DNA from: a virus
Taxonomy: Duplodnaviria > Heunggongvirae > Uroviricota > Caudoviricetes
Length of the DNA stretch: 18,727 nt
Strand: one strand, 5' to 3'
IMG/VR virus record: IMGVR_UViG_2802429219_000002
The position numbers and the translations under genes were made by a program. The notes beneath the pieces were generated by a model. That model saw nothing but the letters and a program-made list of their open reading frames with translations. It made no database searches and was not told the origin of the DNA. Positions 1,901 through 18,727 of this stretch are shown here, one piece after another. Each line of letters opens with the position of its first letter. The stretch's first letter is position 1.

Positions 1901-2692
1901 ATGAGCGAGAAATTGAAGATCGTCTATCGCCCTTTACAAGAACTGTCTCCGTATGCACACAACGCCAGGACACACAGCCCTGAGCAGGTGGCACAACTGG
2001 TAGAAAGCATTAAGCAATTCGGCTGGACTAATCCGGTGCTGATTGATGAAAAGGGCGAAATTATTGCTGGTCACGGTCGCGTTATGGCGGCTGAAGTGCT
2101 CAAAATGGATTCCATTCCGGTCATCGTTCTGTCTGGTTTGATGGATGATCAGAAAAAGGCGTACCGCCTGGCAGATAATCGCCTGCCGATGAATGCTGGC
2201 TGGGATGAAGATCTGTTACGGATGGAGCTGTCGGACCTAATCAATGCTGATTTTGATGTCTCCCTGACAGGCTTCAGCCCGACAGAAATTGATGAACTGT
2301 TGACGGATGTTTTGCCCGGTACAGGAAATGAGGAGGAGCCGTATACGACGAAAATTGATACGCCTGTTTATGAGCCGTCGGGCGGTAAACCGGATATCAG
2401 TGAACTGTACGACGATACGAAAACACAGGAGCTGATCAGCCGGATACGTTCGGCGTCCCTTGAGCCTGATATTGAGAAATTCCTCCTGTGTGCGGCAGAA
2501 CGTCACACGGTGTTTAATTTCAGCAGAATTGCGGACTATTACGCTCACGCCCCCGCTGAAATTCAGTGTTTTTTCGAGGAGTCGGCGCTGGTGATCATTG
2601 ATTATCAGCAGGCTATTGAAAATGGATTTGTCCGGATGACGCAGCGCATGGTGGAGATCATGCATGGTGGTGAGGAGGAGGAATATGCGTGA
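1901..2692 (+). CDS. ParB-like nuclease domain (ParB N-terminal/sulfiredoxin fold) protein with uncharacterised C-terminal region
   Basis: 263-aa ORF. The N-terminus carries the ParB signature: SPYAHNARTHSPEQVAQLVESIKQFGWTNPVLIDEKGEIIAGHGRVMAAEVLKMDSIPVIVL (box II-like IIAGHGR, IPVIV strand). The C-terminus ends in an acidic tail, GGEEEEYA. Sits where I recall ynaK in K-12 Rac (unverified). Confidence 0.8.
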   Translation: MSEKLKIVYRPLQELSPYAHNARTHSPEQVAQLVESIKQFGWTNPVLIDEKGEIIAGHGRVMAAEVLKMDSIPVIVLSGLMDDQKKAYRLADNRLPMNAGWDEDLLRMELSDLINADFDVSLTGFSPTEIDELLTDVLPGTGNEEEPYTTKIDTPVYEPSGGKPDISELYDDTKTQELISRIRSASLEPDIEKFLLCAAERHTVFNFSRIADYYAHAPAEIQCFFEESALVIIDYQQAIENGFVRMTQRMVEIMHGGEEEEYA

Positions 2693-3617
2693 TGATTTTT
2701 GCGCCTTTATTCTGACTCACGGGCGACCGGACAAAGTTCTGACTTACCGGACGTTGCGTCGTGCTGGCTATACCGGGAAAATTTTTATCGTTGTTGATGA
2801 TGAAGATAAGACACGGCATCAGTACATGGCTGAATTTGGTGAACAGGTGCTGGTGTTTTCCAAAGCCGATATCGCCAGTCGTTTTGACGAAGCCGATAAT
2901 TTCGGTGACCGCCGCTCAATTTTTTACGCCCGTAATGCCTGTTTCGACCTGGCAAAACTGGTCGGGTGTAAATACTTCATTCAGCTCGATGATGATTATC
3001 ACGAGTTCCAGTTTCGGGTGGATCGCAACTATGACCAGGCCTATTTTCCGATAAGGAAACTGGATGCGATCCTTTCTGAAATGCTGGCGTACTACGAATC
3101 AATACCTGCTCTTTCCATCGCTATGTCGCAGGGCGGGGATTTTCTTGGTGACAATGGCGGCCATGCTTCGTGGGTGAAACGCAAGGCAATGAACAGCTTT
3201 ATCTGTTCGGTTGATCGACCGTTCTCATTCATGGGGCGCATTAACGAGGATGTGAATACGTACACGAATCTCGGTCGCTGTGGTGAATTGTTTATGACGA
3301 TCGGTGCTGTCCAGTTAGGGCAGAAACAGACGCAGAAAAACAGCGGCGGAATGACCGAGCTGTATCTGGATTCCGGAACCTACGTTAAAAGTTTTTACTC
3401 CGTCATGTATGCGCCGTCGTGCGTAAAAATCTCACTGATGGGTGCCAGCCATAAACGCATTCACCATCAGGTCACCAGGAACAACGCTGCAGTAAAAATC
3501 CTTCACGAAAAATACAGGAAGAAGACACCCTGCATATCAATAGGGGTGACAAATGATTCCGTATTCGAAAGTCGAGTCTCTGGCAGCGTGCCGGATGACT
3601 GCACAACAAATCGCTGA
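2685..3617 (+). CDS. Hypothetical protein; possible GT-A-like nucleotide-sugar transferase fold (two DxD-like acidic motifs); function unknown
   Basis: Start ATG 2685 is preferred over the track's 2664 because GAGGAGGAGG (2672-2681) sits 4-6 nt upstream. Its start overlaps the ParB-like gene stop by 8 nt (ATGCGTGA), suggesting translational coupling. Hydrophobic strand + acidic motifs FILTHGRP, KIFIVVDDEDK and YFIQLDDDYHEF resemble a GT-A/Rossmann-like arrangement; this is a guess by eye only. Confidence 0.65.
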   Translation: MRDDFCAFILTHGRPDKVLTYRTLRRAGYTGKIFIVVDDEDKTRHQYMAEFGEQVLVFSKADIASRFDEADNFGDRRSIFYARNACFDLAKLVGCKYFIQLDDDYHEFQFRVDRNYDQAYFPIRKLDAILSEMLAYYESIPALSIAMSQGGDFLGDNGGHASWVKRKAMNSFICSVDRPFSFMGRINEDVNTYTNLGRCGELFMTIGAVQLGQKQTQKNSGGMTELYLDSGTYVKSFYSVMYAPSCVKISLMGASHKRIHHQVTRNNAAVKILHEKYRKKTPCISIGVTNDSVFESRVSGSVPDDCTTNR

Positions 3618-3804
3618 CGTTCTGGATGTTGATCTGAACCGACTGAAAGAAAATCGGGAAGCAATGACAGATTTTTATGCGGCCATCCGTAAGGGCAGAG
3701 CGAAAGGTGAAGCCGAGTTACGAGCGGCATTGTTTAAGCTTGCCAGAAAAGGGGATGCCTTTGCTCTGCGCGAACTACTCAGGGTGGATAAAAATCAGGA
3801 CTAA
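3553..3804 (+). CDS. Small (83 aa) HTH-like protein of unknown function immediately upstream of the small terminase gene
   Basis: SD-like AGGGGTGA 3542-3549 then ATG 3553. Overlaps the 3' end of the previous CDS by 65 nt in another frame. Helix-turn-helix-like segment MTAQQIADVLDVDLNRLKEN followed by a basic helix. Stop TAA 3802-3804 lies 3 nt before the terS ATG. Confidence 0.5.
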   Translation: MIPYSKVESLAACRMTAQQIADVLDVDLNRLKENREAMTDFYAAIRKGRAKGEAELRAALFKLARKGDAFALRELLRVDKNQD

Positions 3805-3807
3805 CTG

Positions 3808-4902
3808 ATGAGCAGACCGGACTGGGGGGCGTTGCAGCAGGAGTATATTGCTGAATACACCCGCTCCGGTATATCTCCGGTGGCATGGTGTGAAGCAAGG
3901 GGACTGAATTACGCAACAGCCCGTCGTTACATCAAAAAACCTCCGAAAAATGCGCAGACAGAAATGCGCAAAACTGCGCAAAAAAGTGCGCAGAAAAAAT
4001 CTGCGCAGACTGCACAAAAGCGGAACGAAAAATCTCAGGAAAAAAAGCCAGTATTCGATGCGGGCCTGAATGAGGGCGACGCGGAGGAATTTTCGTTCTG
4101 TCCCGATGAATTCGGCATTTCTGACCAGCAGGCTAAGTTTGCGATGCTTGTTGCTCAGGGGAAAAAGCCGACAGAGGCGTACCGACTAGCCGGTTATGAG
4201 GGGCAAGGTGCGACAGCTAACAGCAACGCCAGTCGTATGCTTAGAAATGCCAGGGTTTTTCGCGCTATCAGCTACTTCCGCAATCAGTACCAGAAACGCT
4301 ATACCGCAGACCTGGATTTACTGGTGAGTCAGTTGATGGCCATTGTCCTGGCCGACCCCAATCAGCTTGCACAATTTCGCCGTGTTAACTGCCGTTATTG
4401 CTGGGGCGAGAATCATCTCTACCAGTGGCGCGATATAGCAGAATTCGACAAGGCAGCGGCGCAGGCTTCCAGAGATGGCAAACCCGAACCGGAATATGGA
4501 GGCCTCGGCTTTGTTGATAACGCCATACCCAATCCGGACTGCCCGAAGTGCTGCGGTGAGGGAACGGGACAGCTTTATATGGCTGATACCACTCTGCTTG
4601 ATGGGGATGCGCGGCAATTATATGCAGGGGCAAAACTCGGAAAATTCGGCGTTGAGATCCTGCTGGAGGATAAGGCTGCCGCCCGGCGTGAATTGTTGCG
4701 TTTGCTTTCTGCTGGCGGGGCTTTATGTGCAGATAAGCGGCTACAGGAACTGGAAATTGAACGACGCAGAATGGAAAACCAGAAGCTGCGCAAAGAGATC
4801 GAAACGGTGGAAGATAATGAACATCCCCAGCCTGTGGCGATCAATATTAATGTGGTTGATGCCAGAGTAAGGAGTGATGAAGATGATCTCTCCGACGCTT
4901 AA
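3808..4902 (+). CDS. Terminase small subunit (Terminase_2-like) with N-terminal HTH, lysine-rich repeat linker and Cys4 zinc-ribbon-like cluster
   Basis: N-terminal HTH (ISPVAWCEARGLNYATARRYI), Terminase_2-like segment (KPTEAYRLAGYEGQGATANSNASRMLRNARVFRAI), cysteines CRYC ... CPKCC, coiled-coil C-terminus. Lies directly upstream of and overlapping the large terminase gene. Unusually long (364 aa) for a TerS. Confidence 0.7.
   Translation: MSRPDWGALQQEYIAEYTRSGISPVAWCEARGLNYATARRYIKKPPKNAQTEMRKTAQKSAQKKSAQTAQKRNEKSQEKKPVFDAGLNEGDAEEFSFCPDEFGISDQQAKFAMLVAQGKKPTEAYRLAGYEGQGATANSNASRMLRNARVFRAISYFRNQYQKRYTADLDLLVSQLMAIVLADPNQLAQFRRVNCRYCWGENHLYQWRDIAEFDKAAAQASRDGKPEPEYGGLGFVDNAIPNPDCPKCCGEGTGQLYMADTTLLDGDARQLYAGAKLGKFGVEILLEDKAAARRELLRLLSAGGALCADKRLQELEIERRRMENQKLRKEIETVEDNEHPQPVAININVVDARVRSDEDDLSDA
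3951..4016 (+). repeat. Array of five TGCGCA palindromic hexamers (plus one TGCACA variant) separated by A-tracts, inside the terS coding region; candidate pac/terminase recognition site
   Basis: TGCGCA at 3951, 3965, 3975, 3987 and 4002; TGCACA at 4011. Start-to-start spacings are 14, 10, 12, 15 and 9 bp, each hexamer flanked by A3-A6 runs. The same DNA encodes the peptide repeat KNAQTEMRKTAQKSAQKKSAQTAQKR. Confidence 0.6.
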
Positions 4903-6184
4903 TGTGCCTCAGGCGCGATTTCTTTCAATGCCCCATAAATTTAAAGCCTATATTGCTGGTTTTGGCTCGGGCAAAACATGGGTTGGGTGTGGCGGCATAT
5001 GCAAGGGGATTTGGGAGCATCCAGGTATAAATCAGGGATATTTTGCGCCAACGTATCCCCAAATTCGCGATATTTTTTACCCTACAGTGGAAGAAGTTGC
5101 TGCTGACTGGGGATTGAACGTAAAAATTAATGAGGGAAATAAAGAGGTTCACTTTTATTACGGACGCCAGTATCGGGGAACCACTATCTGCAGATCGATG
5201 GAGAAGCCACAAACGATCGTCGGTTTCAAAATTGGTAATGCGCTGGTGGATGAACTGGACATTTTGCCGAAGGAAAAAGCCAGAACGGCGTGGCGCAAGA
5301 TAATTGCGCGTATGCGTTATAAGATTGATGGACTTCGCAACGGTATTGACGTTACAACCACGCCGGAAGGATTCAAATTTGTCTACGAGCAGTTTGTTAA
5401 AGCCGTGCGTGAAAAAACAGAGCTGGCCTCACTGTATGGTCTGGTGCAGGCATCTACTTTCGATAATGAAAAGAACCTGCCAGCAGATTACATTCCTTCG
5501 CTTCTTGAATCATACCCTCCAGAGCTGATTAAAGCCTATCTTCGAGGACAGTTTACTAACCTGACAAGTGGTACTGTTTACCATCAGTTTGACCGGAAAC
5601 TGAATAATTGCGAAGAAGTGGAGCAGCCAGGGGAGCCGATTTATATTGGGATGGATTTTAACGTTGGAAAGATGGCGGGGATCGTCCATGTGCTGCGTTT
5701 GGGGCTTCCATGTGCGGTAACTGAAATCATCAATGCCTACGATACGCCGGATATGATCCGCATCATTAAAGAACGCTTCTGGCTGTATGACGGGAATGAT
5801 TACCGGAAAGTGAGGGAGATTTATATTTATCCAGATGCTTCCGGAGATTCCAGAAAATCAAGTAACGCAAGTACGACGGATATAGCCCAGCTTAAGCAGG
5901 CTGGTTTTAACGTTGTGGTGAACAGCTCGAACCCGCCAGTAAAAGATCGCGTTAACTCAATGAATGCAATGTTCTGCAATGCCAATGGTGAGCGTCGCTA
6001 TAAAGTTAATGTGAAGCGTTGTCCGGTATATGCCGAATCTCTGGAGCAACAGGTCTGGGATGATAAGGGGGAGCCTGATAAAAAATCTGGCAATGATCAC
6101 CCGAATGATGCCGGAGGTTATTTCATCGTTAAGCAATTCCCTATTGTCAAACCGACCGGAAGAGTCACATCACTTCGGATTTAA
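4883..6184 (+). CDS. Terminase large subunit (ATPase/nuclease)
   Basis: Walker A-like GFGSGKT near the N-terminus, ~434 aa, positioned between TerS and portal. Start is ambiguous (GTG 4874, ATG 4877, ATG 4883); AAGGAG at 4869-4874 favours ATG 4883. Overlaps the terS 3' end. Confidence 0.85.
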   Translation: MISPTLNVPQARFLSMPHKFKAYIAGFGSGKTWVGCGGICKGIWEHPGINQGYFAPTYPQIRDIFYPTVEEVAADWGLNVKINEGNKEVHFYYGRQYRGTTICRSMEKPQTIVGFKIGNALVDELDILPKEKARTAWRKIIARMRYKIDGLRNGIDVTTTPEGFKFVYEQFVKAVREKTELASLYGLVQASTFDNEKNLPADYIPSLLESYPPELIKAYLRGQFTNLTSGTVYHQFDRKLNNCEEVEQPGEPIYIGMDFNVGKMAGIVHVLRLGLPCAVTEIINAYDTPDMIRIIKERFWLYDGNDYRKVREIYIYPDASGDSRKSSNASTTDIAQLKQAGFNVVVNSSNPPVKDRVNSMNAMFCNANGERRYKVNVKRCPVYAESLEQQVWDDKGEPDKKSGNDHPNDAGGYFIVKQFPIVKPTGRVTSLRI

Positions 6185-6186
6185 TT

Positions 6187-7593
6187 ATGGCTGATATATC
6201 AACACCCAACCTCGACTATAACGATATGCTGGAGGCGTGGGATATTAACGACGCATTGATGGGCGGTACGCTTGAAATGCGCAGGCAGGGGGAAAATTAT
6301 CTCCCCAAATGGCCTAATGAAGATGAAGACGCTTATAAAAAACGCCTGTCTGTGGCTACGCTACTTCCTGTGTATGAAGAAAGCATCAAACAAAATATTG
6401 GGCGCATATTTGCAGAGCCGACAGTATTGAGTGAGGAAACGCCGGAAAAAATCAGGGAATATGCAGAAAATATCGACATGGAGGGGAGCCGACTGGATGT
6501 GTGGGCGCAGCAATTTTTCAGTCTCGCATTTCAGTATGGTGTGGCACATGCGCTGGTGGACTATCCACGAACGGATATGAAAGAGATTCGGACAAAAGCC
6601 GATGAAAACGCGGCCGGTGGTCGCCCGTACGTTACGATGCTGAATCCACGCCAGGTTATTGGATGGAAATCGAAAGTTGAAAAAGGGAAAGTTGTTCTCA
6701 CTGATTTGCGTATAAAAGAGGTCATCATTATTGATGGTGATGATTTCGGGCAGAAGAAGGTGGAGCAGATCCGCCATATTATGCCCCGTCGAGTAGAAAT
6801 TTATCGACGCAGCGAAGGTACTAATGGCGAATCTGTCTGGATGCTTCATGAGTCATGGAATACCAGCCGTGATGATATTCCTCTGGTAACACTGTATACG
6901 AAGAAAACAGGGTTTATGCGTGGTACACCGCCATTGCTTAATCTTGGCTTGCTGAATATCAAGCACTGGCAAAGCCAGAGCGAGCAGGACAATATTCTTC
7001 ATGTTGCCCGCGTTCCATTGCTGGTGGCCTACGGGCTGGACAGGAATGAAGAACTGACGGTTGGTGCATCCACCGCTACGATTTTTGAGGACAGAACAAA
7101 AAATGGCCTCGAATATGTTGAACATAGTGGCGCAGCGATAGAATCTGGCGAAACATCACTTGAGAAGCTGGAAAATCAGATGCGTCATGCCGGTGCTAAA
7201 CTTCTGCGGGCTGAAAATACATCCACCAAATCTGTTGATCAGACTAATGAAGAGCGGATGCAGGAACACTCGCCGCTTTATACAATGGCGAACTCCCTCG
7301 AAGATGCCCTCGATAATATTCTCCAGATAATGGCGGAATGGAGCGGAGAGAGTTGCGGTGGCAATGTGGATGTGCGCACTGAACTGGATGTATCTGCCCA
7401 GGTGTTTGACTCATCCTCCGCGCTGGCTGTTCAGTCATTGCGTCAGGGCGGTGATATACGTCAGATTGATGCGGTTCGGGTGTTGCAGGCGTTGAAATTT
7501 ATCGATCAGGATTCCCGTCCAGAGGAAGTGATCGATGAATTAAAAAATCAGAGTGTAATGCTGATGGAAATCAATGATGCAAACCGTGAATGA
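6187..7593 (+). CDS. Portal protein
   Basis: 468-aa ORF starting 3 nt after the TerL stop and followed by an F-like head morphogenesis gene; size and position are typical of a pac-phage portal. Confidence 0.8.
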   Translation: MADISTPNLDYNDMLEAWDINDALMGGTLEMRRQGENYLPKWPNEDEDAYKKRLSVATLLPVYEESIKQNIGRIFAEPTVLSEETPEKIREYAENIDMEGSRLDVWAQQFFSLAFQYGVAHALVDYPRTDMKEIRTKADENAAGGRPYVTMLNPRQVIGWKSKVEKGKVVLTDLRIKEVIIIDGDDFGQKKVEQIRHIMPRRVEIYRRSEGTNGESVWMLHESWNTSRDDIPLVTLYTKKTGFMRGTPPLLNLGLLNIKHWQSQSEQDNILHVARVPLLVAYGLDRNEELTVGASTATIFEDRTKNGLEYVEHSGAAIESGETSLEKLENQMRHAGAKLLRAENTSTKSVDQTNEERMQEHSPLYTMANSLEDALDNILQIMAEWSGESCGGNVDVRTELDVSAQVFDSSSALAVQSLRQGGDIRQIDAVRVLQALKFIDQDSRPEEVIDELKNQSVMLMEINDANRE

Positions 7594-8689
7594 ACGGCTG
7601 CGTGATGAATCAATTGCTCATGCAGTCTGGATATCCCGCTATAGCACTGGTGTGGCTGCCAGAATGGTGAAAATACTGAATGACAGCGATGCGGAGCTTA
7701 CAGCTCGCCTGCTGGTAGCACTGGACAGCCTCGATCCTGGTAGTTTTACCGTTACGCGCCTGGAGTCACTTCTGGCGAGTGTCAGAGAGGTTAACCGCGC
7801 TGCTATTAACAGCATGTTTACCAGTCTCTCCGGAGAGCTGAACGAGCTGGCAATTTATGAGGCTGGTTATCAGTTAAGTCTGTTTGATTCTCTGCTACCT
7901 GATTTTGTTGCTGATGTTCACCCTCTGGTTGGTATATCTTCTGATGCACTTTACGCCGCTGCAATGGCGCGACCATTCCAGGGACGACTGCTCAGTGAGT
8001 GGGCCTTGGATCTTGAGGCGGATCGGCTCAGACGCATAACAAATACGGTGCGTCAGGGTTTTTTGCTGGGGGATACCAATGAGCAGATCGCAAGAAAAAT
8101 TCGGGGACATGTCAGCAAGGGATTTCAGGATGGTGCATTGCAGATGAGCCGGGCTAATGCGGCCAGCATTGCAAAAACAGCGGTTGGACATCTTGCTGCT
8201 ACTGCCCGTGAGAGTTTTGCCAGCGCGAATAATGATTTGATTAAGGGTAAGCAATGGTTATCAACGCTTGATAATCGTACTACGCCACAATGTCGAATCA
8301 GGGATCGCCTCAAATATACGCTGGATAATAAACCTGTAGGTCACAGTGTGCCTTATTTGCATGGGCCGGGAAAAATTCATTTCTGCTGCCGCTCAACGGA
8401 AACGTTCATTCTGAAATCAGCGAAGGAACTGGGTATTGATGTTCGTGATATTTCCCCGGCTGAGCGGGCCAGCATGGATGGCGTGGTGGCCGGAGATACA
8501 ACCTACAGGGAATGGTTTTTGCGTCAGCCTTACACCAGACAAAAACAGATTGTGGGGGAAACCCGGGCAAAGCTGATTCGGGATGGCGGTATGTCGCCAG
8601 ATGAATTTTACACCGATAAAGGCGAATGGCTGACGCTGAAGCAACTCCGTGAGCGTGATGCACAGGTATTCAGAAAAGCAGGGATTTAA
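7574..8689 (+). CDS. Head morphogenesis protein (phage Mu F-like / SPP1 gp7-like minor head protein)
   Basis: 371 aa, overlaps the portal 3' end by 20 nt. Central region KGKQWLSTLDNRTTPQCRIRDRLKYTLDNKPVGHSVPYLHGPGKIHFCCRSTE resembles the Mu-F family core (recalled). Confidence 0.75.
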   Translation: MMQTVNERLRDESIAHAVWISRYSTGVAARMVKILNDSDAELTARLLVALDSLDPGSFTVTRLESLLASVREVNRAAINSMFTSLSGELNELAIYEAGYQLSLFDSLLPDFVADVHPLVGISSDALYAAAMARPFQGRLLSEWALDLEADRLRRITNTVRQGFLLGDTNEQIARKIRGHVSKGFQDGALQMSRANAASIAKTAVGHLAATARESFASANNDLIKGKQWLSTLDNRTTPQCRIRDRLKYTLDNKPVGHSVPYLHGPGKIHFCCRSTETFILKSAKELGIDVRDISPAERASMDGVVAGDTTYREWFLRQPYTRQKQIVGETRAKLIRDGGMSPDEFYTDKGEWLTLKQLRERDAQVFRKAGI

Positions 8690-8709
8690 ATAAATCATTT
8701 ATTACAACA

Positions 8710-8733
8710 GGCTACCTTCGGGTGGCCTTTTTT
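8710..8733 (+). terminator. Rho-independent terminator-like hairpin downstream of the head morphogenesis gene
   Basis: GGCTACC (8710-8716), loop TTCG, GGTGGCC (8721-8727; one G-U pair), followed by TTTTTT (8728-8733). Confidence 0.6.
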
Positions 8734-8793
8734 ATTGCTGCGATCCGGATGGTGAGCAGCGTAACTGTCGGAAGACTTAAACCAGGTACTAAT

Positions 8794-9558
8794 ATGAAAC
8801 TGAAAGCGGTCGAGATTAACGGAAAACAATACGCAGAAATTGATACTGCTGGCCTGCCAGTTTATGTGCACGACGATGGTAAAGAAATCGGCTTCGATGC
8901 ACCGCTGGCGATAAAAAAAATTACAGAGCTTAATGGCGAGGCAAAAAATCATCGCCTGGCTAAAGAAGCTGCAGAGGAAAAACTGGCTAAGTTTGCCGCT
9001 ATCGAAGACCCGAAGAAGGCGATCGAGGCACTGGAAATGCTGTCAAAAATCGACCAGAAAAAGCTGATCGATGCGGGACAGGTTGACCAGGTTAAGGCAG
9101 AAATTACGAAAAATTTTCAGCAGCAATTAGATGAAGAAAAGCAACGCTCTCAGATGCTGGAGACGCAGCTTTACGATTCTATGATTGGCGGTAGTTTTGC
9201 GGGTTCAAAATATATTGCCGATAAAATTGCGATCCCGGCAGATTTATTACAAGCCCGCTTCGGGCAGGCATTCAAAGTGGAAGAAGGGAAGATCGTTGCT
9301 TATGACGCTTCCGGCAACAAAATTTATTCCCGCGCGAAGCCTGGCGAACTGGCGCAGTTTGATGAGGCGCTGGAGTTCCTCGTCGAAAATTACCCTCAGA
9401 AAGACTACATCCTGAAAGCCAGTGGCAACAATGGCGGCGGCTCCCGTCCGACACAGCATGATATTGGTCAGAAAACGATGAAACGCTCTGCTTTTGATGC
9501 ACTGGATGTTGCAGGTAAGCAAAACGCATTGAAAGACGGTATCACAATTGTTGATTAA
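8794..9558 (+). CDS. Scaffolding protein (putative)
   Basis: 254-aa charged, helix-rich protein (EAAEEKLAKFAAIEDPKKAIEALEMLSKIDQKKLIDAGQVDQVKAEI...) immediately upstream of the major capsid gene. Start ATG 8794 chosen because the track's ATG 8722 lies inside the terminator hairpin. Confidence 0.6.
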   Translation: MKLKAVEINGKQYAEIDTAGLPVYVHDDGKEIGFDAPLAIKKITELNGEAKNHRLAKEAAEEKLAKFAAIEDPKKAIEALEMLSKIDQKKLIDAGQVDQVKAEITKNFQQQLDEEKQRSQMLETQLYDSMIGGSFAGSKYIADKIAIPADLLQARFGQAFKVEEGKIVAYDASGNKIYSRAKPGELAQFDEALEFLVENYPQKDYILKASGNNGGGSRPTQHDIGQKTMKRSAFDALDVAGKQNALKDGITIVD

Positions 9559-9656
9559 CACATTTGTCAGCTTCCGGATGGGAGCTGGTGTCAGGGCTGG
9601 ATAGCTCATTACTCCATCTATTCACAATTACGCAAATTTTTAAGGAATATTTAATT

Positions 9657-10655
9657 ATGGCTGGAAATACCCTGACCGGGTTGATCCCGACTATTTATAC
9701 CGCCCTGGATATTGTATCCCGTGAGCAGGTAGGTTTTATCCCTGCGGTAGCAAAAAACGCAAAAGCTGACGCCGCAGCAAAAGATCAGACGGTAACCGCG
9801 CCAGTTGCGCCTGAGGCGAAAACCGAAGATATCGTACCGGGGCCGTCAGCTCCGAATACCGGTGATCAAAATATTGGCACTGTTGATGTGAAAATTACTA
9901 AATCCAAAATGGCACCGGTTAAATGGAATGGTGAAGAACAACTGGCTCTTGGCCCTTCAGGGACTTACAACACCATTCTGGCTGATCAGTTCAAGCAGGC
10001 TTTTCGCGCCCTTGCAAACGAGGTTGAGGCTGATCTTGGTGCGTTGTATTTCGGTGCTTCCCGCGCCGTGGGAACCGCAGGGACAACGCCGTTTGGTGTT
10101 AAAGATGATCTTTCTGATGCTGCTCTGGCTCGTCAGGTTCTGGAGGATAACGGCGCACCGACAACCGATCTGCAGATGGTGCTTGGCTCCACTGCCATTG
10201 CTAATTTGCGCGGAAAACAGTCTGTACTGTTTAAAGTGAATGAATCCGGCACTGAACAGCTACTGCGTGAGGGCGTGTTGGGGCGTCTGGAGGGATTCAA
10301 TATTCACAGTTCGGCAGGTGTAAAACGAGCGCCAAAGGTTGCTGCAACTGGTTATCTCGTGAATGGCGAGAAAAAAGAAGGCGATGTTCTTATTTCCATT
10401 GATACTGGTTCGGGGAGTATTTCTGCAGGTCAGATTGTTACGTTCGCTGGCGATCCGAATCAGTATGTTGTGGCAGCAGCGACCAGCAATCTGATTACTC
10501 TTGCAGCGCCCGGACTGCGTCAGGATCTGGCCGATGATACTGCAATCACAGTTGTTGGCTCCTTTACTGCAAATATGGCGTTTGATCGCAACGCGTTTCG
10601 CTGGCATCCCGTACTCCGGCAATGCCGGAAGGTGGCGATAATGCTGATGATGTAA
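9657..10655 (+). CDS. Major capsid protein; the 3' end appears frameshifted (likely intact reading would end at 10731)
   Basis: SD TAAGGAA 9641-9647 then ATG 9657 (the track's upstream start at 9564 has no RBS). Large protein directly after the scaffold gene. After ...TANMAFDRNAF the frame gives an atypical tail RWHPVLRQCRKVAIMLMM*, while the -1 frame continues protein-like to TAA 10729-10731. Confidence 0.7.
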   Translation: MAGNTLTGLIPTIYTALDIVSREQVGFIPAVAKNAKADAAAKDQTVTAPVAPEAKTEDIVPGPSAPNTGDQNIGTVDVKITKSKMAPVKWNGEEQLALGPSGTYNTILADQFKQAFRALANEVEADLGALYFGASRAVGTAGTTPFGVKDDLSDAALARQVLEDNGAPTTDLQMVLGSTAIANLRGKQSVLFKVNESGTEQLLREGVLGRLEGFNIHSSAGVKRAPKVAATGYLVNGEKKEGDVLISIDTGSGSISAGQIVTFAGDPNQYVVAAATSNLITLAAPGLRQDLADDTAITVVGSFTANMAFDRNAFRWHPVLRQCRKVAIMLMM

Positions 10656-10805
10656 TGAATGTTACGGACCCGATTTCAGGGATTACGTTCCAGATTGCAC
10701 TGTATCGTCAGTATCGCCAGGTGCGCTATTAAGTTGGACTGGCATGGGGTGTTTCATCAGTGAAGCCGGCACATGGTTGTCTGATTCTTGGTTAAACATT
10801 CAAAC

Positions 10806-10825
10806 GGGGCTTCGGCCCCATTTTT
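10806..10825 (+). terminator. Rho-independent terminator downstream of the capsid gene
   Basis: GGGGC (10806-10810), loop TTCG, GCCCC (10815-10819), then A and TTTTT (10821-10825). Confidence 0.65.
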
Positions 10826-10837
10826 AATGGAGGGCAT

Positions 10838-11014
10838 ATGGCCGGATTAACTAAAGAGCAAAGAGCACAGCGTGAAGCCGCACAAAAAACGCAAATTGAG
10901 TTAGTGGTTATGGTGACCGATTATCAGATGTTTCCCGGCGCACCAACTATCGCTAATGTTCATCCTGATGAAGTTGACAACTGGAAGGCTATGGGCTGGA
11001 AAACTCAGGAGTAA
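10838..11014 (+). CDS. Small hypothetical protein (58 aa), not present in the supplied ORF track
   Basis: SD GGAGGG 10829-10834 then ATG 10838; translation MAGLTKEQRAQREAAQKTQIELVVMVTDYQMFPGAPTIANVHPDEVDNWKAMGWKTQE, stop TAA 11012-11014 lying 3 nt before the next gene's ATG 11018. Confidence 0.5.
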   Translation: MAGLTKEQRAQREAAQKTQIELVVMVTDYQMFPGAPTIANVHPDEVDNWKAMGWKTQE

Positions 11015-11017
11015 CAC

Positions 11018-11413
11018 ATGATCACTTACGTGACCTGTGATGACGTTGATAATGCGTTTGGGAACGCCTGGACGAGTGAGAACGCTAAAAATAAAGCTGT
11101 TTTAATGGCTAATGCCTGGCTTAATGGCTTCAACCTGAAAATTAACCCATCCCGTATTCCGGAAGAGGTAAAACTTGCGGGAGCATATGCAGCCAGAATT
11201 GCCTCATTCGGTAAGTTGTTTCAGCAGAAAAATGATTCTGGCGTTGTTATCAGTAAAGCCGTGTCGGCTGACGGGGTCAGTGTATCGAAATCATTTGCTG
11301 AGTTGCCAGCAAACAGCACTGTATTGCTTGAACCCGATTTACAGCTTGCGATAGCACTGCTGAAACCGTACGGACTTAGTCGCTCACAAGTCAGGGTTGT
11401 GAGGGGGGGATAA
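11018..11413 (+). CDS. Head-tail connector / adaptor protein (gp6-like)
   Basis: 131 aa; N-terminus MITYVTCDDVDNAFG is typical of the gp6-like head-tail connector family (recalled); located just after the capsid gene. Confidence 0.7.
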   Translation: MITYVTCDDVDNAFGNAWTSENAKNKAVLMANAWLNGFNLKINPSRIPEEVKLAGAYAARIASFGKLFQQKNDSGVVISKAVSADGVSVSKSFAELPANSTVLLEPDLQLAIALLKPYGLSRSQVRVVRGG

Positions 11414-11796
11414 TGGGGCTTCGTGAAGAGATTCAGTCAGAGGTTGCCGCTGCTTTTGATGAGGATTTAGCGGACGCCGTGAGTGATTTTTCTGGTTCTT
11501 ACGTTACGCACCGGCACTGGGATCCTGTGACGGAAACTGGCGGCGAATCCACCGCAATCTATACCGGGCGAGGCGTGTTGACACGTTATAAGCTGGGCAG
11601 AATTGATGGGATTAATATTTTGCATGGTGACCTTAAATTAACCGCTCTGGTATGCGAGGTTACGGATAAACCCGCTGTCGACCATATTATTGAGATTTAT
11701 GATCCTGTATTAAGGCAGTTACAACGATACGAGGTAATTACAGCGAGTGTAGATCCTTCCGCATCAGTTTACTCTATCCAGTTAAGGAGAGCGTAA
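11413..11796 (+). CDS. Head-tail joining (head closure-like) protein
   Basis: 127-aa ORF whose ATG shares one base with the upstream stop (TAATG); assignment is by position in the connector cluster. Confidence 0.55.
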   Translation: MGLREEIQSEVAAAFDEDLADAVSDFSGSYVTHRHWDPVTETGGESTAIYTGRGVLTRYKLGRIDGINILHGDLKLTALVCEVTDKPAVDHIIEIYDPVLRQLQRYEVITASVDPSASVYSIQLRRA

Positions 11797-12177
11797 ATGG
11801 CAAAGGCATGGGATATAGAACCGTCAATATTTGCCGGGATGATTGAGGAAGATGTGGGGCTGAAAATTCGCTACATCGCTATGCAGATTCTTACTGCTAT
11901 TGATATTGCTGCTCCGGTTGATACCGGACGTTTCAGAAATAACAACCTGGTGTCGTTACAGCATCCCGATTTTGGTATATCTGATAACGTGGATCCGAAC
12001 GGTACGATTGCGGTTCAGCGTGGGATCGGGGTTATTTCGAAAGCTGCAAATTACGGAGTTATTTATATCCAGAATAACCTTCCTTATGCAGAGGCTCTTG
12101 AAAACGGTCATTCACAACAAGCGCCAACTGGCGTGTATGCCAACGCTTTTCATGGTGTTTTACAGGCTTACAAATGA
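11797..12177 (+). CDS. HK97 gp10-like neck / tail completion protein
   Basis: 126 aa with a PVDTGRFRNN motif characteristic of the HK97 gp10 family (recalled); ATG follows the upstream TAA directly. Confidence 0.65.
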   Translation: MAKAWDIEPSIFAGMIEEDVGLKIRYIAMQILTAIDIAAPVDTGRFRNNNLVSLQHPDFGISDNVDPNGTIAVQRGIGVISKAANYGVIYIQNNLPYAEALENGHSQQAPTGVYANAFHGVLQAYK

Positions 12178-12566
12178 CGTTTACTGAAATCAGAAATACG
12201 GTTATTTCCAGAATGACGGCACAGACGATTATTGATGGAAAAGACGTATTGTATCCGAACGCGCCAACGTTCGATCCTTCCGGTAAGTTAATCTGGGCGC
12301 GGTTAAGTAATATTCCCGGGCAGGCTGGAGTTAATGAAATTGGCGCGGGGCCGATTGTTTATCGCACGGGGATAATCATTATTCAGTTATTTGTCCCCGC
12401 AGGTTCTGGTTCAAAACTCATTACTGAGACAGCCGATAAATTGCGGGAACTGTTTGAGTTTCAGGATGACGATCGTCTCAGTTACCAGGCTGTTTCCTCA
12501 ATAGCCGTTGGCGAAAAGAATGGCTGGTTCCAGCTTAATCTTCAAATTCCATATCGCGCGCTCTAG
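12174..12566 (+). CDS. Tail terminator-like protein (gpU analogue)
   Basis: 130-aa ORF overlapping the previous gene by ATGA, immediately upstream of the major tail gene. Confidence 0.55.
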   Translation: MTFTEIRNTVISRMTAQTIIDGKDVLYPNAPTFDPSGKLIWARLSNIPGQAGVNEIGAGPIVYRTGIIIIQLFVPAGSGSKLITETADKLRELFEFQDDDRLSYQAVSSIAVGEKNGWFQLNLQIPYRAL

Positions 12567-12592
12567 CGCAATTAATGACATAGGAGGCTCCT

Positions 12593-13555
12593 GTGAGTTC
12601 AGGTGCAAAGGTTATCTCGGCATTTATCCGGGAGACGGTTGCAGGCACTACGCCAGCAAGTGGTGACTGGAGTTTATTAAAACGCACAAGCTGGGGAGTA
12701 AAACCCACCCAGAATAAAGGCGAAAATAATGAGATTGGTGGCTCCCGGATGGCTCAGGGGGCGACGCCTGGCACTGTGGATGTCGGCGGTGATGTTGGTA
12801 CCAAATTTCGCTGGGGTCAACATGATGATTTTCTTGCATCCTGTTTCGGCGCGGAATGGTCAGGCGATTCTCTGACAATGGGGAATGAGCGAATAACATT
12901 TTCTCTAGCGACCTATGCGTCCGATGTCGGAATTGCCTCTGTCGTCAGAGGAGCGCAGGTTGGCTCATGGAAAATGCAGATCCCTAACGACGGCGATATT
13001 ACAGCGACCGTAACCTTTGCCGGACTGGACTGGGAATCAAAGGCCGATGATACGAATTTTATCAAAGGCGAACCTGTGGATAGTGCAGGAAAGCTACGTT
13101 ATTCGTTTAAGGAGGTTTCAGCAGTAAGCCTGAATGGTGTTGCCGGAGGTAACGGTTTTTGTATCGACAGTTTTGATATTCAGTTCGATAACAAACTCCA
13201 GACACAGCGTTGTATCGGGACTGGCTCGCCTTATGCAGGAGCAAATATTCCGACTACTTTTACACCGTCCGGTACGGTGACGCTTTCATGGTCTAAAGCC
13301 GCGTGGGAAATCTGGAGTAAAACACTGACTGGAGAAACAGTTCCGTTCAGCTTTACGCTTTCGAATGGAGAGGGGGCATACACTTTCAGTTTCCCGAAGG
13401 TTCAGGTGTCAGGTGAATGGCCTGATGGGGGTAATAGCGACATTATCCAGGTTCAATTGAGCATTACCGCAGCAGATGAAGCACCTACGATAACCAGAAA
13501 AAAAAATTCCCCGGCTGCCGTGATCGCAAAAGCCAGTGCTGAGGCGATTAGTTGA
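12593..13555 (+). CDS. Major tail (tube) protein
   Basis: GTG start 12593 preceded by AGGAGG 12582-12587; 320 aa, Gly/Ser/Thr-rich beta-type composition; lies between the tail terminator and the G/GT chaperone genes, as in lambda (V). Confidence 0.7.
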   Translation: MSSGAKVISAFIRETVAGTTPASGDWSLLKRTSWGVKPTQNKGENNEIGGSRMAQGATPGTVDVGGDVGTKFRWGQHDDFLASCFGAEWSGDSLTMGNERITFSLATYASDVGIASVVRGAQVGSWKMQIPNDGDITATVTFAGLDWESKADDTNFIKGEPVDSAGKLRYSFKEVSAVSLNGVAGGNGFCIDSFDIQFDNKLQTQRCIGTGSPYAGANIPTTFTPSGTVTLSWSKAAWEIWSKTLTGETVPFSFTLSNGEGAYTFSFPKVQVSGEWPDGGNSDIIQVQLSITAADEAPTITRKKNSPAAVIAKASAEAIS

Positions 13556-13603
13556 TTTTCCGTTATTCCTCCTGTGGTACTGCCCTACAGGGGGACGCAT
13601 TGA

Positions 13604-14065
13604 ATGAGGTTATGGATGTTTATTCTTAATCAGAAAATTATCATTGGTGGAGAACGCTGGTTTACGCCAATGAAGGACTTAAAACCTGTAGACGGGTTAA
13701 AACTGTTGGTGGCAAGCAGCGATAACGATCAGTATCGCTCCCGTAATGCATTAATCCGTCGCCACATTGAGAAAATGGATGCCAGTTTGCACGTCGGAAC
13801 GAAGGAGTTTGATATTTCAAAGGTTTCCGAGGTGGATTCTGTTGATGATTTACTCATTGATAATGCCGCTCGTTATCTGCTGAAAGACTGGAAAGGGGTT
13901 GGTGAACTGGTTAATGGTGTTGAGGTTGCACTGGAATATACGGCAGAACGAGGGATCGCGCTGCTTAAGCAGAATCCAGAGTTGTACTGGCAGATCCTTG
14001 CAGAAGCAGCCAGCATCGCCCAGGGTAAAGAGCAGCAGAAGCAGGATACGATAAAAAAGCCATAG
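13604..14065 (+). CDS. Tail assembly chaperone (lambda gpG analogue)
   Basis: SD AGGGGGA 13589-13595 then ATG 13604; 153 aa, acidic, ending ...EQQKQDTIKKP*. The slippery heptamer A_AAA_AAG sits 4 nt before the stop. Confidence 0.75.
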   Translation: MRLWMFILNQKIIIGGERWFTPMKDLKPVDGLKLLVASSDNDQYRSRNALIRRHIEKMDASLHVGTKEFDISKVSEVDSVDDLLIDNAARYLLKDWKGVGELVNGVEVALEYTAERGIALLKQNPELYWQILAEAASIAQGKEQQKQDTIKKP

Positions 14066-14373
14066 CTGCCCAGCGGTGGTTATCGGAGTTCGGGGGAGAA
14101 AGGGGGGAAAAGGCAAGATGGAAGCGAGAAAAACTCAGGTTGCCACCGATACCGGAACCAGAAATAGACCCGGTGCTTAAGGAGTTGTTGTACGCCTATT
14201 CGGTAATATCCCGTGCCCGACGTTATGCTGGAATGGCTGGGGTGCCTTTGCCTTTATCTCTGACAGAGATAAATGAATATTTAGCCACTCATCCGGTATT
14301 GATTGAGCGCGATGAATTTGAAGCAGTGATCTTTGCACTGGATGACCAGTATTTTCAGGAGCAGTGTGTGTAG
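13604..14373 (+). CDS. Tail assembly chaperone GT fusion made by programmed -1 ribosomal frameshift (join 13604..14059 and 14059..14373)
   Basis: The -1 frame is open from the slippery site through 14373 (107 codons), reading KKAIAAQRWLSEFGGERGEKARWKREKLRLPPIPEPEIDPVLKELL...; the track shows this ORF only from an internal TTG at 14140. Confidence 0.65.
14053..14059 (+). promoter_or_regulatory. Slippery heptamer A_AAA_AAG for the G/GT -1 frameshift
   Basis: Zero-frame codons ATA AAA AAG (I K K) at 14051-14059; X_XXY_YYZ pattern with an open -1 frame downstream. Confidence 0.65.
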
Positions 14374-14493
14374 TTGTTAATTACGTACACTCTGTTACAG
14401 AGATGTGATGGTGTCTTTAATTAAATCGATGATGCTCCTGGAGAAAAGCATTGCGTGGCCTCGTAATCGCTATATCTACTATTATGTCGCCTG

Positions 14494-14518
14494 AAACCCA
14501 CTTCGCGGTGGGTTTTTT
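14494..14518 (+). terminator. Rho-independent terminator-like hairpin in the T-to-tape-measure intergenic region
   Basis: AAACCCAC (14494-14501), loop TTCGCG, GTGGGTTT (14508-14515), T-run to 14518; followed by SD AGGAG 14525-14529 and the tape measure ATG 14539. Confidence 0.55.
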
Positions 14519-14538
14519 GTTGTCAGGAGTTTTAATAA

Positions 14539-17500
14539 ATGGCAGAGCAAACCTCGCGTCTCGCAATAATTATTGATAGCACTGGAGCGAAAAATAATGC
14601 TGACAATCTGACCTCCTCATTAGTCAAAATGACGCAGGCTGGGGAAACTGCTGCAAATAGCGCAGGGAAAGTGACTAAGGCAACAGAAGATGAGAAGAAC
14701 GCGCTCGCAAAATTAAAAGCAGCTATTGATCCAGTTGGTGCCGCAATTGATACTGTCGGTCGACGCTATTCTGAATTAAAGAAATTTTTCGATAAAGGGC
14801 TTATTGATAAAGAAGAATATGAATTTCTTGTCCGTAAACTTAATGAAACCACAGAGGAATTGAGCGGGGTTGCGCAAGCGCAGAGAGAAGCCGAGAAGGC
14901 CGGAAAACTTGCTGCCGCCCAGCAGGAAGCGCAGGCTCAGGCCTTTCAAAGAATGCTGGACAAGATCGACCCTCTGGCTGCGGCGCTAAGAAATCTTGAA
15001 CAACAGCATGATGAACTTAATGCTGCGTTTGCATCCGGGAAAATAAATGGTTCTCAGTTTGAGAATTATAGCCGAAAAATACAGGAAACACGGCGAGAGC
15101 TTACCGGAGAGGCTCAGGCAGAGCGAGAAGCAGCAAAAGCGCATGATGAACAGGTTGTTGCTTTGCAACGTCTGATTGCTCAACTTGATCCTGTCGGAAC
15201 TGCTTTTAATCGTCTGGTAGAACAACAGAAACAGCTCAATGAAGCAAAAGCTAAGGGGATGCTTTCTCCTGAAATGTATGAGGAGCTTTCTGGAAAACTT
15301 CGTGCTATGCGGAGTGAGCTTGAGGTTACTCAATCACAATTAAGCAAAACCGGAATGTCGGCAAAACAAACGGCTTTTGCTATGCGCATGTTGCCTGCAC
15401 AAATGACGGATATTGTTGTTGGGTTGTCCACTGGTCAGTCGCCATTTATGGTGTTAATGCAGCAGGGCGGCCAGCTAAAAGATATGTTCGGTGGGATTGG
15501 CCCGGCGATCAAAGGTGTAGGTTCTTATGTGCTGGGATTAGTTAATCCTTTTACCCTGGCCGCAGCAGCCGTTGGGGTCTTAGGACTGGCTTACTATAAA
15601 GGCTCTCAGGAGCAGGACGAATTTAATAAATCTCTTATTCTTACCGGAAATCAGTTGGGGACAACCAGCGGGCAATTGGGCGATATAGCTCAACGTGCCG
15701 GGAATGCGGCTGATTCGACAACTGGTGCTGCGGCGGCAGTATTAAATCAGCTTGTGCGTTCGGGAAAGGTAGCGAGCAGTTCGCTGGAGCAAGTGACGAC
15801 AGCGATAGTAAAAACGAGCGAAGTAACAGGAATATCAACCGAACAACTGGTTAATGACTTCAATGAAATTGCAAAGGATCCTGTCAGTGCCATATCAAAA
15901 CTTAATGATCAGTACCATTTTCTGACACTTGCGACTTATAACCAGATTAAGGCGCTACAGGATGAAGGGAACCAGCAGGAGGCCGCCCGCATTGCGACAG
16001 AAGAATACTCATCCTCAATGATCCAGCGCACCAACCAGATTAAAGAAAATCTTGGTTATCTTGAGACTGCATGGAAAGCTGTCGCAGACTCCGCAAAATG
16101 GGCATGGGATTCCATGCTGGATATTGGCCGTGAGGCCTCCCTTGATCAAAAAATCTCAGATGTTCTCCGTCAAATTGATGAAATAGAAAAAAATACCCGA
16201 CCCGGAGTTTTCGGGTTAGGTGGCATTGGAGATGGCGGAGCTCAAAATAAAAGGCTGGCACGATTAAAGCAGCAATTGGGCGTACTTCAAGCAGAAAAAA
16301 TTGCTCAGGACGTACTAAATTCATCAATAAACGATTACAACAAGCGACAACAGGAAGGAATTGAACTCAGACAGAGAGCAGATGCCTTTTCAAAACAATA
16401 TCAGACCCGGGAGCAGCAGAGAGCTAGTGAACTTGCAAAACTGGAAAAGCTAAAGAATCAGTATTCAAAGGAAGAATATAATAATCTTATCGCTCAAATA
16501 AATGAGCGTTATAAAGATCCAAAGCAACCAAAGGCGAAAGGTTATTCTGATGATGCAGCCCAACGAATGATTGATCATCTGAATCAACAGAATGCGTTAC
16601 TAAGTTCACAAGCTGAGTTGACCGTTAAATTAAGTTCCTCTGAACAGGAACTGGTTAAGTGGCGTCAGCGGATTGCCGACCTAGAGTCACGACCATCAAC
16701 GAAATTAACCCAGGATCAGAAATCGCTTCTCTTACACCGGGAAGAAATAACCGCGTTGATGGAGAAAAATGTTGCGATTGAAAAAAATAACAGGCTAATC
16801 AAGGAATCCGCCGAAATAACAGCATGGCGTGATTCATTGCAGGCTTCGATTGATAATCGTCAGCAGGGGTATGATATTCAGATTGCTGGTTATGGGGTTG
16901 GCGATAAAAATCAGCAACGCCAGCAGGAATTACTGCGGATTGAACATGGATATAACAATCAGCGTCTGCAACTTGAACGTGACTATGCAGATAAATCCCG
17001 TGGAATGTCAGATCATGTTTTTCAAGAGAAAATGCAGGCTCTGAATGATGCTCTGGAACGGGAAAAAGAAATTGTCAGACAGAAAAACGAGCAGCTCGAT
17101 ATTCAGGCAGGAGACTGGGTTAGTGGTGCCTCCCAGGGATTCAATAACTGGCTGGATGACACTAAGGATATCAGTGAGCAGATAAAATCAACCACGACTC
17201 AGATGTTTGATGGGATGACCGATGCGCTGGGTGATTTTGTCACGACAGGCAAGGCAAATTTTCGTTCTTTCGCTACTTCCGTGATTTCGGATCTTAGTCG
17301 AATAGCATTAAAGGCTTCAATTACTGGGATTTTCGACAGCATTAGTAACAGTTCTTCTGGGGGGATTTTAGGAACTATCGGGAGTGCTATTAGTAAATTT
17401 ATTCCGAATGCAAAGGGCGGTGTTTATGAGTCTCCGTCATTGAGCACGTATTCGAACGGTATTTATGATTCCCCGCAATTTTTTGCTTTTGCAAAAGGGG

Positions 17501-17772
17501 CTGGTGTTTTTGGTGAGGCTGGACCGGAAGCTATTATGCCATTAACACGAACTTCCGATGGTTCTCTTGGTGTCAGAGCTATTAATAGTAAAAGTGGTAA
17601 TGGAGGCGGAGATATTACCTATGCCCCTGTATACCAAATCACTATTCAAAATGACGGCCAGAATGGAGAGATTGGCCCTCAGGCAATAAAAGCACTTATG
17701 GGGATGGTTGATCAGCGGGTGCAGGGCAATCTGTTAAATATGCGACGTGATGGGGGAATGTTAAGTGGCTAA
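14539..17772 (+). CDS. Tail tape measure protein (lambda gpH analogue)
   Basis: 1077-aa ORF, long Ala/Gln/Glu/Lys-rich coiled-coil-like N-terminal half, hydrophobic central segment ([27 protein letters not shown]), located between GT and M. Confidence 0.9.
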
Positions 17773-18103
17773 TACGGAAGAATTTCACTGGTTACCAGAG
17801 GATGGAATGAAAACAGAAAATAAACCATCGATAAAAACTGTAAGATTTGGTGATGGTTATGAGCAACGAAGTCCAAATGGACTTAATCATTCTCTGCGCG
17901 TTTTCACCTGTGATTTCAAAGTTGAGGCGAATGAACGTGATTCATTTGAAAAATTTTTAGCCCGGCATGAAGGCTATAAATCTTTTTTTTGGCGCCCGCC
18001 GGGTATTAACAGAAAAATCAGAGTGGTGTGTCGAACGTGGTCAGCGACAGAACATATCACCTATACCGATTTTTCGTGTCAGTTTGACGAAGTGGTGATC
18101 TGA
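17765..18103 (+). CDS. M: Minor tail protein M (lambda gpM-like)
   Basis: Translation ...[35 protein letters not shown]...[19 protein letters not shown]... parallels lambda gpM (recalled ...FRWKVKPGMD...VRFGDGYSQRAPAGLN...). GTG 17765 is taken as start because the extension aligns with the lambda M N-terminus; ATG 17807 is an alternative. Overlaps the tape measure stop. Confidence 0.85.
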
Positions 18104-18727
18104 TGCAGGACATACGACAGGAAACACTGAATGAATGCATCCGTGTGGAGCAGACGGCCAGCGTGGTGCTCTGGGAAATTGATCTGACAGAGGTCGGTGG
18201 GGAGCGTTACTTTTTCTGCAATGAGCAGAATGAAAAAGGTGAACCGGTTACCTGGCAGGGGCGAAAGTATCAGGCGTACCCCATTCAGGGAAGCGGCTTT
18301 GAGATGAACGGTAAGGGCAGCAGCGCACGTCCCACACTTAAGGTATCTAACCTGTATGGCATGGTCACCGGGATGGCCGAAGACCTGCAGAGTCTGGTCG
18401 GCGGAACGGTGGTCAGGCGTAAGGTTTATGCCCGTTTTCTGGATGCGGTGAACTTCATCAACGGAAACAGCGAAGCCGATCCGGAGCAGGAGGTGATCAG
18501 CCGCTGGCGCATCGAGCAGTGCAGCGAACTGAACGCGGTTAGCGCGGCCTTTGTGCTGTCTACTCCGACGGAAACGGATGGTGCTGTTTTTCCGGGGCGC
18601 ATCATGCTGGCCAACACCTGCACCTGGACCTATCGCGGTGACGAGTGCGGTTATAGCGGTCCGGCTGTCGCGGATGAATATGACCAGCCAACGTCCGATA
18701 TCACGAAGGATAAATGCAGCAAATGCC
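18103..18727 (+). CDS. L: Minor tail protein L (lambda gpL-like), 5' partial; runs off the window end
   Basis: ATG 18103 shares its A with the M stop codon (TGATG). Translation [72 protein letters not shown]... closely matches lambda gpL as I recall it, including the C-terminal cysteines (CTWTYRGDECGYSGP...KCSKC). No stop before position 18727. Confidence 0.9.
   Translation, partial: MQDIRQETLNECIRVEQTASVVLWEIDLTEVGGERYFFCNEQNEKGEPVTWQGRKYQAYPIQGSGFEMNGKGSSARPTLKVSNLYGMVTGMAEDLQSLVGGTVVRRKVYARFLDAVNFINGNSEADPEQEVISRWRIEQCSELNAVSAAFVLSTPTETDGAVFPGRIMLANTCTWTYRGDECGYSGPAVADEYDQPTSDITKDKCSKC

Follow-up and report, generated by a model that had tools for sequence, protein, structure and literature searches.

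Two point lesions in the P22-type coat protein gene of a Rac-like Escherichia coli prophage

The major capsid gene at 9657–10795 of the window, by which we mean the whole stretch of 18,727 nucleotides analyzed here, is very probably a pseudogene of the P22-type coat family that two real mutations, inherited within one E. coli lineage, have inactivated. The first lesion, a one-nucleotide deletion in codon 315 (CTG), throws the frame by −1. Translation from the ATG at 9657 therefore proceeds through 314 native codons and 18 codons of the nonsense frame to a stop at 10653–10655. The second lesion turns ancestral codon 359 from GAA into TAA, a nonsense change. The product would be left without the five strands that follow the inserted domain of the fold and, judging from conservation and the predicted structure, would neither fold nor assemble into procapsids. 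We infer that a prophage that makes no procapsids would, on its own, be unable to package DNA or to make infectious particles.

The capsid gene and its two lesions

All features of the capsid region lie on the + strand. A Shine-Dalgarno-like AAGGAA can be read from the sequence at 9642–9647, 9 nucleotides upstream of the capsid ATG. The open reading frame that follows (9657–10655) encodes 332 amino acids. Its translation runs to ...ANMAFDRNAF and then continues with RWHPVLRQCRKVAIMLMM up to the stop, a segment that occupies 10599–10655. The initial annotation had described the 18 residues after FDRNAF as atypical, and they are indeed unrelated to the family, whose frame is left after F314. They are without a counterpart in any homologue. 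The −1 frame had been called protein-like, and this description also holds, as its peptide, ...SLASRTPAMPEGGDNADDVMNVTDPISGITFQIALYRQYRQVRY, is identical to the intact orthologues and conserved in distant ones. When both candidate C-termini are aligned with the homologues, the −1 peptide aligns and the tail starting with RWHPVLRQ aligns to nothing. Some of the earlier coordinates have to be corrected. The −1 frame was given as open from 10538; it contains a TGA at 10583–10585 and is open only from 10586, and its TAA is found at 10730–10732, not at 10729–10731. The two frames overlap over 10586–10655.

A comparison with the closest relatives, in which the intact orthologue is 1,140 nucleotides long and encodes the 379-residue protein WP_000918483.1, shows where the frame was lost. 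In all top matches the aligned segment has 1,252 bases, one more than the 1,251 of the query. Where the relatives have GCG TTT CTG CTG GCA (A F L L A), GCG TTT C-G CTG GCA is found in the window. One T is therefore missing between C10599 and G10600 from the ancestral TTTCTGCTGG, in which it belongs to the CTG codon of L315. The switch point had been correctly placed at GCGTTTCGC (10593–10601); the lost base had been assigned to the TTT run there and is instead the T of the CTG codon. The ancestral protein reads ...NAFLLASRTP..., so that the proposed repair with a single T to ...FDRNAFSLASR... does not give the ancestral ...FDRNAFLLASR.... Nor is one base sufficient, because there are two lesions.

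The DNA of ancestral codons L316–Y358 (10601–10729) is intact, although it is now in the −1 frame and untranslated. The second lesion is located 131 nucleotides downstream of the first, where the window has TAA at 10730–10732 and all relatives have GAA, a G-to-T change at 10730 that turns E359 into a stop. This TAA had been taken for the end of the restored frame. It is not the natural stop, and the ancestral frame continues through codons 360–379 (VGLAWGVSSVKPAHGCLILG; 10733–10795 with the stop) to the native TAA at 10793–10795. If a T is inserted at the first site and T10730 is replaced with a G, the resulting 1140-nucleotide open reading frame encodes exactly the 379 residues of WP_000918483.1, a protein that occurs on at least 1000 contigs. 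The footprint of the ancestral gene (9657–10795) is supported by the orthologue alignment, this reconstruction, PHROG 283, the Pfam family P22_CoatProtein and a fold match. As two lesions are present, neither a single-base reversion, nor a compensating indel, nor a ribosomal slip can give a full-length protein.

Separate translation of the downstream piece was considered as well and rejected: its sole in-frame ATG, at 10622, has no obvious ribosome-binding site, and the product would be 36 residues long. Further downstream, 11 nucleotides past the native stop, a consensus scan picked out a terminator-like hairpin at 10806–10829 (GGGGCTTCGGCCCC, then ATTTTTAATG). It is GC-rich with a T-rich run, and is likely an attenuating terminator after a highly expressed coat gene.

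Inherited mutations or consensus errors

The entire window corresponds to PTSA01000050.1 of assembly GCA_002965785.1. At 18.7 kb, this draft contig is short, and the lesions are known from assembled contigs. It could be argued that the capsid gene is intact in the actual genome and broken only in the contig, through a consensus indel error, which the initial annotation had suggested in the form of a sequencing or assembly indel at a homopolymer. The sequence around the deletion does not favor this explanation, as the deleted T stood between a C and a G (TTTC[T]GCTGG), outside any homopolymer. The lesion 131 nucleotides away is, moreover, of the substitution type.

The exact 332-residue product was also found on two contigs assembled from other read sets, and both lesions are present in each of them. 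The first (L005, SRR3988017) shows 100% identity with the window across 13,750 nucleotides. This read set and the window may derive from one isolate and hence not be independent, in which case independence would rest on the second contig (L006, ERR273776). The latter reproduces both lesions exactly, yet differs from the window by two mismatches over 12,954 nucleotides, at window positions 4057 and 7346. On the strength of these two SNPs, it represents an isolate and a project distinct from those of the window. An assembly artefact is largely refuted by these observations, and we consider it very unlikely. Because the lesions recur in other assemblies, one of them from a distinct isolate, because the deletion lies outside a homopolymer, and because the second lesion is a substitution, both are best read as inherited mutations of one rare E. 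coli lineage. The alternative offered by the initial annotation, a genuine capsid-inactivating mutation, stands in that the mutation is real, and needs to be amended in that a single lesion was assumed and two are present.

The lesions are private to this lineage among the genomes compared. The capsid segment occurs, at a coverage of at least 80%, in 744 of the 5,426 complete E. coli genomes. A 60-base query centered on the first lesion found the segment in 743 complete genomes, none of which carries the deletion: all 743 keep the T and have a single uninterrupted open reading frame. The analogous query for the second lesion found it in none of 755 complete E. coli genomes, all of which have GAA. 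In strain CFSAN061763, the closest intact relative, the only differences from the window between 9000 and 11000 are at the two lesion positions.

Conservation and fold of the lost segment

The window product is without the C-terminal 65 residues (315–379) of the coat protein, and this segment is well conserved. Homologues with 82–88% identity, which come from Citrobacter, Salmonella, Klebsiella, Phytobacter, Serratia, Leclercia and Pantoea, are all 377–379 residues long, and residues 315–379 are their most invariant stretch, changing hardly at all. An exhaustive HMMER scan gave 1,808 cluster representatives at E ≤ 0.001, and in the majority of the best 150 the alignment extends to the C-terminal end of the query. 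For a more diverse alignment, 110 representatives with 35–56% identity were combined with the query to give 111 sequences. The occupancy of residues 315–379 in the 110 diverse homologues is 99.7%, a value that is biased upward by the choice of full-length matches. The mean identity in this set is 0.49 for residues 315–379 against 0.43 for residues 1–314. Of all 111 sequences, 99 end at the column of the native stop, and the column of E359 has E as its majority residue (82 sequences).

Profile comparisons identify the family to which the gene belongs. The Pfam family PF11651 (P22_CoatProtein) matches the intact orthologue with 44.3 bits (cutoff 24) and an E-value of 1.4e-11, over residues 105–241 only. 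PHROG 283 ("major head protein") covers the intact protein from profile position 2 to 383 of 385 (E = 3e-136), whereas its match to the window product ends at position 319 of 385.

Searches of PDB sequences with the single protein and with a shallow profile gave nothing useful. With the profile of 111 homologues, matches to Che8 gp6 (E = 5e-10) and Sf6 gp5 (E = 4e-4) were obtained. An AlphaFold model of the intact orthologue calculated from 33 close homologues (82–99% identity) had a pLDDT of 31.8 and was discarded; the model calculated from the 111-sequence alignment had a pLDDT of 93.5 and a pTM of 0.90. A Foldseek comparison of this model with the PDB returned P22, CUS-3 or Sf6 coat chains for all of its top 17 matches, with E-values from 1e-18 to 7e-16 and TM-scores of up to 0.71. 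The best of them is the P22 coat protein 8i1v_A (E = 9.5e-19, TM-score 0.71). By profile and by predicted fold, the intact gene is hence a member of the P22-type coat family (PF11651; PHROG 283), along with P22 gp5, the CUS-3 coat protein and Sf6 gp5. The resemblance is remote at the sequence level, as the intact orthologue is about 14% identical to P22 gp5 and consists of 379 residues versus 430.

In P22-like coat proteins, the chain that has passed through the inserted domain returns and builds the P- and A-domain sheets of the HK97 core. The model places the lost segment in this part of the P22-like fold: residues 314–378 form five beta strands that follow the inserted domain, and their pLDDT is 94–98. 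The window copy does not encode a complete coat polypeptide, since residues 1–314 are continued by 18 foreign ones and the remainder of the gene carries the TAA. According to the model, the loss of the five strands should abolish both folding and assembly, and the prophage is most likely unable to build heads.

Evidence against a programmed frameshift in the capsid gene

Capsid-gene programmed frameshifts are known from other phages, and a break that is followed by conserved C-terminal sequence in an overlapping −1 frame calls such a mechanism to mind. A −1 ribosomal frameshift near 10596–10601 would in this case produce the full or an alternative capsid protein in the manner of T7 gene 10A/10B. 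The capsid gene resembles T7 10A/10B and lambda G/GT in that two reading frames overlap where the structural gene ends, at its 3′ end, and the conserved sequence is carried on in the −1 frame. A true site of the G/GT type appears to be present elsewhere in the window. However, the capsid gene differs from these systems in several respects. The entire overlap, in which the 0-frame codons 10587–10655 were read, does not contain an X XXY YYZ heptamer. The 105 nucleotides downstream (10596–10700) have a folding energy of −28.8 kcal/mol, which is no better than that of shuffled sequences (z = −0.30) and does not amount to a stimulatory structure, and Rfam gave no family match. Furthermore, the relatives have one continuous open reading frame, unlike T7 10A/10B and lambda G/GT. 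This is true for all 743 complete E. coli genomes with the segment, for the phage records and for homologues from other genera. Finally, a ribosome that shifted here would still end at the premature TAA at 10730, so that 21 conserved residues would be missing. The probability that the break represents programmed recoding is negligible and we reject this explanation.

The other site is found in the YdaY-family gene, which ends ...ATA AAA AAG CCA TAG and contains a canonical −1 heptamer, A AAA AAG, at 14050–14056. The −1 frame after the heptamer is open to 14373 and merges with an open reading frame at 14140–14373, just upstream of the tape measure gene (14539–17772). We take a YdaY gene and a −1 reading frame in front of a tape measure gene to be the lambda G/GT arrangement, and the region (13604–14373) looks like a conserved tail-chaperone programmed frameshift of this type. 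The RefSeq annotation has only "protein YdaY" at this position.

The prophage and its late genes

Close relatives with complete genomes place the window in the late region of a Rac-like lambdoid E. coli prophage that adjoins trkG. The order begins with the lysis genes, which are known from the relatives, and continues with trkG, a ynaK-like ParB_N gene, a TAGT/GREB1-like gene and the small and large terminase genes. The head genes are next and encode the portal (DUF4055), a Mu-F-like minor head protein, a DUF6651 scaffold-like protein (8722–9558), the major capsid protein and the head-tail connectors. They are followed by the genes for the tail tube, YdaY, the tape measure protein and the lambda-like distal tail proteins. 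The coat gene comes after those of the portal, the Mu-F-like minor head protein and the scaffold-like protein, as it does in the P22-type coat family. The prophage differs from P22, which has a short tail, in its lambda-like long tail module, and from the family as a whole in that its copy of the coat gene is broken.

The initial annotation called the module otherwise intact-looking, and we agree with this. From trkG to the tail genes, the open reading frames other than the capsid gene have the same lengths as in the intact relatives, and all head, tail and packaging frames except that of the capsid are full length. Head formation is the sole visible defect on the contig, which covers the region described above; the early region, the lysis genes and the tail fibers are outside it.

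Several features near the start of the window deserve a comment. The trkG gene (306–1763), which encodes a host-type potassium transporter, is a moron inside the prophage, with the lysis genes (rzpD/rzoD in relatives) on one side and the packaging genes on the other. Lineage-private substitutions cluster in trkG and the ParB_N gene (150–2430); the head and tail genes differ very little from those of relatives. The ParB_N/Srx-family gene (1901–2692), annotated as a truncated pseudogene (ynaK) in several relatives, overlaps the TAGT/GREB1-like glycosyltransferase-family gene (2685–3617), which is directly upstream of that of the small terminase. The two genes together (1901–3617) may be a phage DNA-modification pair. 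Bases 1–127 of the window do not align in most relatives, for which matches begin at 128, and one genome has their match roughly 9 kb farther upstream. As 127 is a common assembler k-mer size, these bases are probably not biological but an overlap left at the contig end by a repeat or branch.

Origin of two lesions in one gene

Over roughly 15 kb (about 3500–18500), only five alleles distinguish the window from four close intact relatives. Three of them are W265R in the TAGT protein (3477), a synonymous change in the portal gene (7194) and T29A in the scaffold protein (8806); the remaining two are the capsid lesions. Two of about five private alleles are destructive, 131 nucleotides apart and in the same gene. 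Stop codons are created by only 2.7% of the possible substitutions in the intact reading frame. Two such hits look improbable under independent neutral decay (roughly 1%, a post hoc figure for a site that had been picked as a lesion). Moreover, none of the collections searched contained an intermediate with only one lesion. Exact 28- and 30-nucleotide motifs spanning the lesions had no match in viral, metagenome or GTDB-representative contigs, and the 358-residue protein expected from the nonsense mutation by itself is absent from a collection of 15 billion proteins.

These numbers raise the question of whether the lesions arose by a non-neutral or non-independent route. They could be a clustered event that stems from one error-prone repair tract. 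Alternatively, loss of the capsid could have been selected, either to keep tails, lysis genes and morons such as trkG without virions, an early domestication to a tail-only particle, or to turn the truncated coat into a decoy or an assembly poison that interferes with related phages. Other E. coli lineages with independent truncations of the same capsid gene could be cited in favor of a non-neutral or non-independent origin. However, as the finding was chosen as a lesion, post hoc probabilities exaggerate the surprise, and all late genes drift once a prophage has become defective. The recurrent truncations suit plain decay equally well, and the analysis gave no positive sign of a selected function or of a single clustered event. 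We regard both a clustered and a selected origin as improbable.

The truncations in other E. coli assemblies are 278 (P0015), 326 (P0007) and 349 (P0005) residues long. The 278-residue form, which is encoded on 62 contigs, is the result of a frameshift after about residue 241, the 326-residue form has its junction after residue 293, and the 349-residue form is a nonsense product with the stop after L349. Decay of the capsid gene is recurrent in Rac-like prophages, and these truncations fit ordinary decay. The 90%-identity cluster that contains the truncated capsid proteins also lists a 119-residue "protein YdaY", an unrelated protein encoded 3 kb downstream. Its presence there looks like a clustering artefact of the protein collection.

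Comparison with other prophages and implications

That prophages decay through mutations which abolish virion formation is well described, and E. coli commonly carries such defective prophages, also called grounded or cryptic. The inactivation of the capsid gene described here is ordinary decay of this kind, an already well-documented type of event. The Rac prophage of K-12 provides a direct comparison, as it has the same chromosomal neighborhood (trkG, a ynaK-like ParB_N gene and ydaY). K-12 is known to have a truncated, incomplete Rac, and more of this prophage is present in other strains (PMC6379469). The whole head region and most of the tail region have been deleted from Rac of K-12, whereas the window keeps the entire late region and has two point lesions in one gene. 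It represents an early stage of decay, earlier than that of K-12 Rac. The intact capsid gene is also found in records named as vB_EcoS-xxxRx phages, which are prophages predicted in clinical isolates (bioRxiv 10.1101/2022.06.29.498070). Since these are predictions only, we rejected them as proof that this phage type forms virions.

For annotation, these results mean that the region should be described as one capsid pseudogene at 9657–10795, and not as a 332-residue "capsid protein" followed by non-coding DNA. They also bear on the scoring of prophages: tools that rely on gene content and rate this late region as "intact" would err, as heads are very probably not made. In terms of evolution, the window provides a snapshot of the first step of prophage decay, in which one gene has been hit twice and about 17 kb of neighboring late genes are untouched.
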